From Candidatus Buchananbacteria bacterium (GTDB lineage: Bacteria; Patescibacteriota; Patescibacteriia; 2-01-FULL-39-33), in contig CAIPBY010000086.1 of NCBI GenBank assembly GCA_903863425.1, forward strand, positions 1-55,488: 55,488 nt of DNA. Reading direction: 5' to 3'. The notes under the pieces are model-generated. The model was given only the letters and a program-made list of their open reading frames with translations. It made no database searches and was not told the DNA's origin. Positions 27,094 to 27,280 of this stretch are shown piece after piece (position 1 is the first letter of the stretch; every line of letters begins with the position of its first letter). The translations under genes were made by a program, and so were the position numbers.

Positions 27094-27280
27094 AAAACAG
27101 GCCGTATCTCTTGAAATGGAATACGGGCCTGAGAAAATAGAGGTAGGGTGATATACTACGCTGCGGACGCGCAGGATACGCTTAAGGGATCGAGCGATCC
27201 CAGGGGGAGGGGTTGGCCCCCACGTATCAATTTATCCTCTAAGTCGGTCAAGAAAAAGAGGTCAAACTATCACCCTACAA
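27094..27280 (-). ncRNA. Unassigned structured RNA candidate with an intrinsic terminator
   Basis: Read on the minus strand. There is an 11-bp closing helix GTAGGGTGATA (27278-27268) / TATCACCCTAC (27153-27143). Internal hairpins are CCTCT..AGAGG, GGGG(GCCAA)CCCC, GGGATCGCTCGATCCC and CTGCG-CGTC-CGCAG. It ends in CAGGCCCGTAT..ATACGGCCTG followed by TTTTTT (27131-27092). Confidence 0.45.

Follow-up and report, generated by a model that had tools for sequence, protein, structure and literature searches.

A probable selected RNA with a four-way junction at the end of a tRNA operon in a Patescibacteria genome

What, if anything, is encoded between the last tRNA-like gene of a tRNA operon and its terminator is the question raised by a short piece of minus-strand DNA (positions 27094-27280) from a Candidatus Buchananbacteria bacterium. 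It lies on contig CAIPBY010000086.1 of assembly GCA_903863425.1 (Patescibacteria, 1.12 Mb, 98.8% complete), whose 55,488 nt were analysed as a whole and are called the window here. A first-pass annotation, made from the letters only, had described an unassigned RNA candidate of roughly 185 nt with several hairpins and a terminator at its end. We consider it very probable that the element is a structured RNA of the minus strand which is under selection. Our best guess is a lineage-specific, fast-evolving structured RNA which forms the last cistron of a sigma-70-driven RNA operon.

Fold of the element

Folding with RNAfold places a 136-nt core on the minus strand at positions 27143-27278, a four-way junction made up of the helices P1, P2, a bifurcated P3 and P4. 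The parts of the core and the terminator behind it are listed below, together with their state in L041, a metagenome contig with the same gene order and a pth gene (peptidyl-tRNA hydrolase) that is 89% identical.

27268-27278, minus strand: P1, 5' strand, GUAGGGUGAUA; kept in L041
27230-27267, minus strand: P2 hairpin, GUUUG-A-CCUCU ... AGAGG-A-UAAAU; stem kept by compensatory changes, loop varies freely
27175-27228, minus strand: P3, a 7-bp stem (GAUACGU/GCGUAUC) splitting into P3a and P3b; stem identical in L041
27203-27221, minus strand: P3a, G5/C5 hairpin GGGGG-CCAACCCCU-CCCCC; its C-rich stretch CCAACCCCUCCCCC contains CCCUCC
within P3, minus strand: P3b, GGGAUC-GCUC-GAUCCC
27156-27174, minus strand: P4 hairpin, CUGCGC-GUCCGCA-GCGUAG
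27143-27153, minus strand: P1, 3' strand, UAUCACCCUAC
27092-27131, minus strand: intrinsic terminator, a GC-rich hairpin of about 10 bp (27098-27131) followed by U6 (27092-27097)

The closing helix P1 (GUAGGGUGAUA/UAUCACCCUAC, 11 bp) encloses 114 nt; in DNA letters of the minus strand its two sides read GTAGGGTGATA at 27278-27268 and TATCACCCTAC at 27153-27143. The minimum free energy (MFE) of the piece 27141-27280 is -57.6 kcal/mol (z-score -5.37), while dinucleotide shuffles of the same piece reach -36.9 +/- 3.9 kcal/mol and none of 200 folds as well as the element. Folded together with the terminator the value is -71.3 kcal/mol (z -6.44). The fold has four hairpin tips, and both the sequence and RNAfold confirm the 11-bp closing helix around a multi-hairpin RNA that had been proposed for this strand.

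Two of the hairpins have to be redrawn. The one given in the first-pass annotation as GGGATCG-CT-CGATCC would need a loop of 2 nt, which is impossible, and folds as GGGAUC-GCUC-GAUCCC, for which L041 has GGGAU-CUCUA-AUCCC. For the other (CTGCG-CGTC-CGCAG), L041 instead supports CUGCGC-(7 nt)-GCGYAG, i.e. a P4 of 6 bp with a 7-nt loop. The GC-rich hairpin and T6 tract expected behind the element are indeed present at 27092-27131. The terminator hairpin starts 11 nt beyond the closed junction, its U6 tract overlaps the TAA stop codon of the convergent pth, and a U-tract terminator exists on the minus strand only; a simple terminator scanner overlooked it because its loop is longer than 8 nt. The GC-richness of the locus also holds, as the element has a GC content of 51-52%, 12 points above that of the genome (39.6%). 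The element is single-copy, with one copy found in the genome by BLAST and one hit obtained with R1, a model built from this single sequence.

Conservation in the closest relative

A metagenome scan with pth yielded L041 as the only close relative; a look-up with DprA added no further one, and a contig that is 99% identical ends before the element. As a neutral yardstick we used the 4-fold degenerate sites of pth, 39% of which differ between this genome and L041. In the element 17 of the 90 paired positions have changed (19%) versus 27 of the 50 unpaired ones (54%; Fisher p 4.7e-5), counted in an alignment of L041 that was guided by the R1 model (81 bits). In total eleven pairs differ: seven are still paired, one is deleted on both sides (in P3a) and three terminal pairs are lost. 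The seven retained pairs comprise the compensatory changes in P2b, one more P2 pair turned into a wobble, and a G.U that became G-C in P4. At the sequence level P2 changes from CCUCU/AGAGG to CUUCU(U)/(G)AGAAG, and P3a is found in L041 as GGGG-CGCCCCCU-CCCC at the same place. When relatives were checked for conservation and covariation, the helices thus proved to be conserved with compensatory changes in L041, and they are under purifying selection. The unchanged blocks, which include UUAAGCGUAUCCUGCGC and CCCUUAAGCGUAUCCUGCGC, are far longer than a neutral divergence of 39% would permit. The terminator differs by one loop base, and the tRNA-like genes and spacers are almost identical in both sequences.

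More distant homologues and range

Five relatives of the genus-level clade, with a pth identity of 70-78% (G001, L152, L154, L155 and the partial L156), have a GC-rich domain at the same spot. The complete ones (G001, L152, L154 and L155) show a closing helix of 7-13 bp, variants of a GGGUG/CACCC core and three to four hairpins; behind these lie a linker and, convergent with pth, a U-tract terminator. In these four, P1 is substituted by other self-complementary sequences. Of the L156 element only the 3' part is preserved, from P4 through the 3' strand of P1 to the terminator. Across the homologues the ends of the element are recognisably related (5' U(A)GG(G/C)GUG..., 3' ...CAC(N)CC(U)A(A)AC), and the sequences form a chain which leads from this genome via L041 and L156 to G001. 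P4, for instance, reads CUGCGC/GCGUAG here, CUGCG/CGCAG in L156 and UGUGUG/CGCGCA in G001, where every pair differs and the pairing is kept, and a small hairpin GGC-UUUA-GCC of L156 corresponds to GGU-UUAG-ACC in G001. The sense strands of all six complete members fold with z-scores between -4.3 and -6.1, each exceeding its own antisense strand.

In some other members of the family the same spot is occupied by different GC-rich closed structures, and in some a tRNA directly abuts the terminator. The hits of R1 beyond the element and L041 are at noise level (E 0.04-10) and mostly spurious (one example being the antisense of the element), and therefore the automatic alignments A2 and A3 were excluded from the counting of pairs. 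A BLAST search against 60 relatives returned only pieces of tRNAs, apart from one 27-nt match inside the element in G022, which we regard as chance because it falls into a region that looks protein-coding. Fixed-window z-scores ahead of the terminator were calculated across the family as well; they are too crude to serve as a census and were not used.

Comparison with known RNA families

No family of Rfam 15 could be assigned to the element by cmscan, neither at gathering thresholds in the window nor at E<=10 in the region 26950-27650, so that an assignment to a known family, which would have made the locus ordinary, did not come about. At gathering thresholds cmscan reports a transfer-messenger RNA (tmRNA), a LOOT RNA and tRNAs in the window and none of these at the element; the weak lines for YrlA, CRISPR-DR and the permuted tmRNA (E<=10) fall on tRNA genes. 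The tmRNA gene lies elsewhere in the window, and the 5S rRNA gene is on another contig.

The candidates that come to mind for an RNA of this size were looked at separately. 6S RNA (RF00013) matches neither the element nor any other part of the genome, and a four-way junction is not the rod with a large central bubble that is typical of this RNA. The model of RNase P RNA (RF00010) leaves the element unmatched and finds the copy of the genome at contig C34:10034-10460 (140.5 bits). With the tRNA model (RF00005) and a limit of E<=10, cmscan picks up the three genes further upstream and nothing in 27094-27290, and the homologue in G001 is likewise unmatched. The Y RNA model (YrlA, RF02553) has no match inside the element, and no domain of a Ro/TROVE protein was found in the genome, which argues against a Y RNA.

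The RNA of the signal recognition particle (SRP) has no covariance-model match (RF00169/RF01854) in the window or in the whole genome. For its protein partner Ffh, we found no M domain, no SRP54-type GTPase above the cut-off and, in a six-frame motif scan, no open reading frame (ORF) with GKTT...DTAGR in the genome; tBLASTn with the Ffh of Escherichia coli gives only E>3. Because neither Ffh nor FtsY was found in the genome, the element is not a hidden SRP RNA. This observation extends beyond the single genome: the GTPase domain of Ffh and FtsY (PF00448) is found in none of 34 genomes of the family, 41 of the class and 61 of the phylum, closed ones included, while it was detected in 14 of 14 controls, and a protein search of five closed genomes for SRP also came back empty. 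Either SRP is genuinely absent from the Patescibacteria or it escapes detection for a systematic reason. In the genome studied here ARAGORN detects no tRNA-Asn(GUU), tRNA-Trp(CCA), tRNA-Ile(GAU) or tRNA-Thr(GGU), and the 16S rRNA gene is absent from the assembly, which leaves the 3' end of 16S rRNA unreadable. Therefore part of the RNA gene set is either unassembled or unrecognisable.

A literature search found no publication on this RNA, nor on regulatory or structural RNAs of Patescibacteria (the candidate phyla radiation, CPR) other than the universal ones.

The RNA operon and its neighbours

The order on the minus strand is promoter, 5' RNA, tRNA-Phe, two tRNA-like genes, the element and the sole U-tract terminator. 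The protein genes on either side, dprA (divergent) and pth (convergent), are on the opposite strand.

27717-27745, minus strand: sigma-70-like promoter, TTGACA, 17-nt spacer, TG-n-TAATAT (consensus scan 10/12, plus the TG of an extended -10)
27578-27705, minus strand: 5' RNA of the operon, Y-shaped, with a closing stem of about 26 bp and two hairpins, the first of which presents a CCCUCCU loop
27491-27565, minus strand: tRNA-Phe (GAA), the first tRNA of the operon (ARAGORN; Rfam tRNA 66 bits)
27376-27470, minus strand: tRNA-like gene with a 29-nt anticodon loop, a full cloverleaf (Rfam tRNA 48.3 bits, 29-nt insert)
27291-27358, minus strand: tRNA-like gene with a UGG anticodon loop (UUUGGAA, A37; Rfam tRNA 32.6 bits)

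The idea of one minus-strand RNA operon is supported by the sigma-70-like promoter, the common orientation and the single U-tract terminator. tRNA-Phe, the two tRNA-like genes and the element belong to it as the first-pass annotation had proposed, but the operon is larger than that, as a further conserved RNA of about 130 nt stands at its head. Boxes of the type TTGACA...TGnTAnnAT precede the same 5' RNA in L037, L038, L042 and L152.

This 5' RNA has no Rfam match and folds with a z-score of -5.3. It is much more widespread than the element: nhmmer matches it in 28 of the 32 pth-adjacent loci of the family, and a model of it (R2) finds it in 23 of 151 genomes of the class, across many families, with a single sense-strand hit per genome. 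Its CCCUCCU loop, which resembles an anti-Shine-Dalgarno sequence, is invariant in 18 sequences of the family and in 10 other families. The consensus fold that RNAalifold derives from the 18 sequences has 44 pairs; compensatory changes are seen in 34 of these, and CCUCCU is invariant. In ten loci that were read individually, CCCUCCU is present in all, and sequence resembling an antisense of pth lies downstream in five.

Among the tRNA-like genes, that at 27376-27470 was not called by ARAGORN. Its acceptor stem, D arm and T arm are perfect and it has an ACCA end, while the anticodon loop forms an extra hairpin of 8 bp, and the removal of any single insert does not yield a 7-nt anticodon loop with U33. 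Only few positions differ from L041 despite the neutral divergence of 39%, and therefore this gene is under strong selection. L127 has a similar tRNA-like gene with an extended anticodon arm. In the gene at 27291-27358, which is identical in L041, 11 nt replace the D arm. ARAGORN finds no further tRNA with a UGG anticodon (tRNA-Pro(UGG)) anywhere in the genome, and the gene may be the working, D-armless tRNA for CCA codons; a normal-looking tRNA with the same UUUGGAA loop is present in L155 at the equivalent position. In the L041 ortholog of the tRNA-Phe gene (L041:2420-2474) the T arm and the 3' strand of the acceptor stem are unchanged, but the anticodon arm carries CAU; either the gene was replaced or its anticodon arm was remodelled. 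L154 retains the Phe version, and the two U-U oppositions of the acceptor stem are present there as well.

More generally, aberrant tRNA-like genes cluster in the region between dprA and pth across the family (L122, L125, L127, L131, L140, L042, L143). Their D or anticodon arms contain inserts or their T loops are unusual, and the region also holds GC-rich closed structures, which vary between genera. Small ORFs which by eye are GIY-YIG-like lie between the tRNA genes of Ile-Phe-Pro operons in L002 (1583-2316) and L011 (1138-1455), two relatives from the class, and in front of each ORF is a duplicate of the 5' part of the tRNA that follows. The same pattern is seen at 34546-34680 of the window, where a duplicated 5' part of tRNA-Met is found beside a LAGLIDADG gene. 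These duplicated tRNA 5' parts beside endonuclease ORFs suggest elements that home into tRNA genes.

C-rich loops and a possible mode of action

The unpaired positions of all six complete members are rich in C and poor in G (10-17 C versus 1-4 G). In six out of six, the MFE fold leaves a CCCC run unpaired, for which the probability in shuffled sequences is 0.12-0.32 each, and an unpaired C-rich motif is thus exposed on hairpin loops in all of them, although the hairpin concerned varies from one member to another. These loops read CCAACCCCU(CCCCC) here, CGCCCCCU in L041, CUCCCCCC and ACCCCCCA in G001, and CCCCCA and CUCCUCA in L152. For CCCUCC the expectation in this genome is 0.017 occurrences per 136 nt, yet it is present here, in L041 and, as CCCUCCU, in L152. 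Since the same motif occurs in the 5' RNA, both RNAs probably act on the same kind of target.

Possible targets can be named. The complement of AAGGAGGUG occurs at ten sites of the genome, mostly beside the reverse complement of ATG, which fits a canonical Shine-Dalgarno site. Moreover, a repeated leader with the organization [ACCCCCUCU]-[CUCCCCC]-UUGNAAA-[GGGGGAG]-A-rich-AUG was found in about 18 copies and in both orientations, several of them directly before long ORFs; the Shine-Dalgarno sequence of this leader is long and G-rich and is masked in a hairpin with one of two C-rich strands. Copies are located as follows.

C82:1210-1265; C101:15300-15360; C101, minus strand, near 10589 of the reverse complement; C91, C9, C6 and others; about 880-925 of the window

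Because the C-rich loop resembles the anti-Shine-Dalgarno sequence of the ribosome, the element may be a small RNA that regulates translation. In the model that we put forward tentatively, the element would be a small RNA derived from a tRNA trailer which pairs with G-rich, Shine-Dalgarno-like sequences. Processing of the 3' end of the upstream tRNA-like unit would free it from the precursor, and the 11-bp closing helix P1 together with the terminator hairpin would stabilise the freed RNA. The P3a stretch CCAACCCCUCCCCC with its CCCUCC could then act in trans by pairing with GGAGG or GGGGGAG in Shine-Dalgarno-like sequences of mRNA leaders, in a mode likened to that of the C-rich UCCC-motif small RNAs of Firmicutes.

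A more far-reaching interpretation, which we regard as rather doubtful, takes the whole locus as an operon dedicated to mimicry of the anti-Shine-Dalgarno sequence. It would consist of a class-wide, single-copy CCCUCCU RNA of about 135 nt, always convergent with pth, and in some lineages of additional fast-evolving RNAs bearing the motif. Together these RNAs would vie with the 3' end of 16S rRNA for binding to Shine-Dalgarno sequences, or tie up a factor with affinity for this end. If true, such an operon would set global translation initiation in organisms where no SRP genes were found and, in this genome, no 6S RNA.

Alternative explanations

Several points weigh against the element as a selected RNA or against its proposed action. 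The strong evidence for conservation comes from a single close relative, L041, and an alignment fitted to the structure inflates the count of compensatory changes in P2; when the P2b alignment is shifted, one clear double change is left. The relatives with 70-78% pth identity align weakly (R1 on G001 gives 10.4 bits, E 0.15-0.44) and their support leans on synteny, therefore we treat these distant members as syntenic homologues and not as proof. R1 finds no match in the other 33 genomes of the family, and the element is therefore dispensable at the family level. As to the mode of action, the predicted fold places part of the C-rich stretch in a stem (G5/C5), which makes its accessibility uncertain, and loops that are rich in C and poor in G could simply aid folding.

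A modest chance has to be granted to a 3' trailer that acts purely in cis. Such a plug, stably structured and set between the terminator and the last of the tRNA-like genes, would have no function of its own in trans; it would shield the precursor from 3' exonucleases, direct the maturation of tRNA 3' ends, or insulate the operon against the convergent transcription of pth. The element is always the last one before the terminator, the closing helix persists while the internal architecture varies freely between relatives, and in L127 and L136 the element is missing and the tRNA abuts the terminator directly, all of which would suit a plug. On the other hand the terminator hairpin by itself already blocks exonucleases, a plug does not need the recurrent exposed CCCC/CCCUCC loops, and blocks of the junction are 100% conserved versus a neutral divergence of 39%. 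These conserved junction sequences and the closed multi-branch architecture would also suit the RNA subunit or scaffold of a ribonucleoprotein, whose loops, C-rich and G-poor in all members, would bind a protein (e.g. of the KH type) and not serve as base-pairing sites. We think this unlikely, as the element has no linked protein gene (its neighbours pth and dprA being ordinary), the genome has no Ro/TROVE protein and a rapid turnover of architecture is unusual for such a scaffold. Still less credit is given to a decaying remnant of a degenerate tRNA-like or inserted sequence with no present function. Its four-way topology recalls a cloverleaf, the closing helix in G001 (GGUGCAG...CUGCACC-ACCA) resembles an acceptor stem that ends in CCA, the locus is rich in aberrant tRNA-like genes across the family, and relatives have duplicated tRNA 5' parts beside GIY-YIG ORFs. 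But a remnant would hardly keep its helices by compensatory change, with paired positions changed less than half as often as neutral sites, or a GC content 12 points above the genome, and the tRNA model stays unmatched even at E<=10, with no T-loop to be seen.

The short distance of 11 nt between junction and terminator raises another idea, namely a domain that senses a ligand or signal and controls the terminator, so that read-through makes an antisense RNA against pth. The 3' strand of P3 (CGUAUC) can pair with GAUACG in the 3' strand of the terminator and the 5' strand of P3 with the 5' strand of the terminator, and the RNA operon and pth converge across the class (in five of the ten loci read, as noted for the 5' RNA). 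Past the terminator the minus strand is nothing else than the antisense of pth, which led us to reject a riboswitch or other cis-regulatory leader; further, no riboswitch family of Rfam is matched and the internal architecture varies among the homologues, unlike that of aptamers. The alternative pairing is identical in L041, the only close relative, and hence uninformative. Overall we hold a sensing domain to be very improbable. Finally, the 11-bp terminal inverted repeats, the other palindromic repeat families of the window and a mechanical 50-aa GTG ORF on the plus strand (27148-27300) could speak for an element acting at the DNA level, such as a miniature inverted-repeat transposable element (MITE) or a repetitive extragenic palindrome (REP), or for a small protein gene. 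This has scarcely any credibility and is already largely refuted: the sequence is single-copy by BLAST and by R1, it is unrelated to the AT-rich palindromes of the window (family A), and four G.U pairs are possible only in the RNA of the minus strand. The ORF qualifies the earlier statement that the locus has none, which nevertheless stands insofar as gaps of 5, 3, 1 and 2 nt in L041 interrupt this frame. A selected structured RNA of the minus strand, possibly one that acts in trans, is thus the reading that we retain.

Significance and relation to known systems

The locus offers a concrete case of a selected small RNA in a tRNA operon of Patescibacteria, and it links this RNA to a far more widely conserved 5' RNA with an invariant loop that resembles an anti-Shine-Dalgarno sequence. 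From this arises a testable idea of how bacteria with tiny genomes might tune translation without the usual regulators. The stable-RNA operon itself acts as a breeding ground for novel structured RNAs that change quickly and for unusual tRNA-like genes.

In its topology, a four-way junction closed by a helix of both ends, the element is similar to the tRNA cloverleaf, but its closing helix has 11 bp, the junction linkers are different and there is no T-loop, D-loop or anticodon loop. With YrlA it has in common the character of a modular RNA with a long closing helix of the 5' and 3' ends which adjoins tRNA-like modules; however, the only match to this family in the region (21.7 bits versus a gathering threshold of 69) spans two neighbouring tRNA genes and not the element. 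The small RNAs rrA, rrB and rrF of E. coli are located, like the element, at the very end of a stable-RNA operon with which they are co-transcribed (PMC8144298). They lie between two terminators and are made by read-through, whereas the element precedes a single terminator.

With regard to a possible action in trans, the closest parallel is found in the UCCC- or C-rich-motif small RNAs of Firmicutes (RsaE/RoxS, other Rsa RNAs and LhrC from Staphylococcus and Listeria; PMC2790875, PMC4132741). Both present unpaired C-rich motifs on hairpin loops that are complementary to G-rich Shine-Dalgarno regions. There is no homology between them (no Rfam hit, the RsaE models included), the architecture and the phylum are different, and the motif of the element is CCCUCC/CCCC, the pairing of which with targets is presumed from complementarity. 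With regard to its origin, the element can be compared to 3'ETS-leuZ of E. coli, a regulatory small RNA cut from the 3' external transcribed spacer (ETS) of the glyW-cysT-leuZ tRNA operon (10.1101/2021.04.25.441314). At about three times the length of 3'ETS-leuZ, the element folds into a closed four-way junction and is unrelated to it in sequence; neither Hfq nor partner small RNAs are known from this organism, and both release and action in trans are assumed here by analogy. Its location is that of a 3'ETS-type RNA, since it comes after the last tRNA-like gene and before the intrinsic terminator of the tRNA transcript, in the same order in L041, and like 3'ETS-leuZ it would be released by tRNA processing and would not require a promoter of its own.

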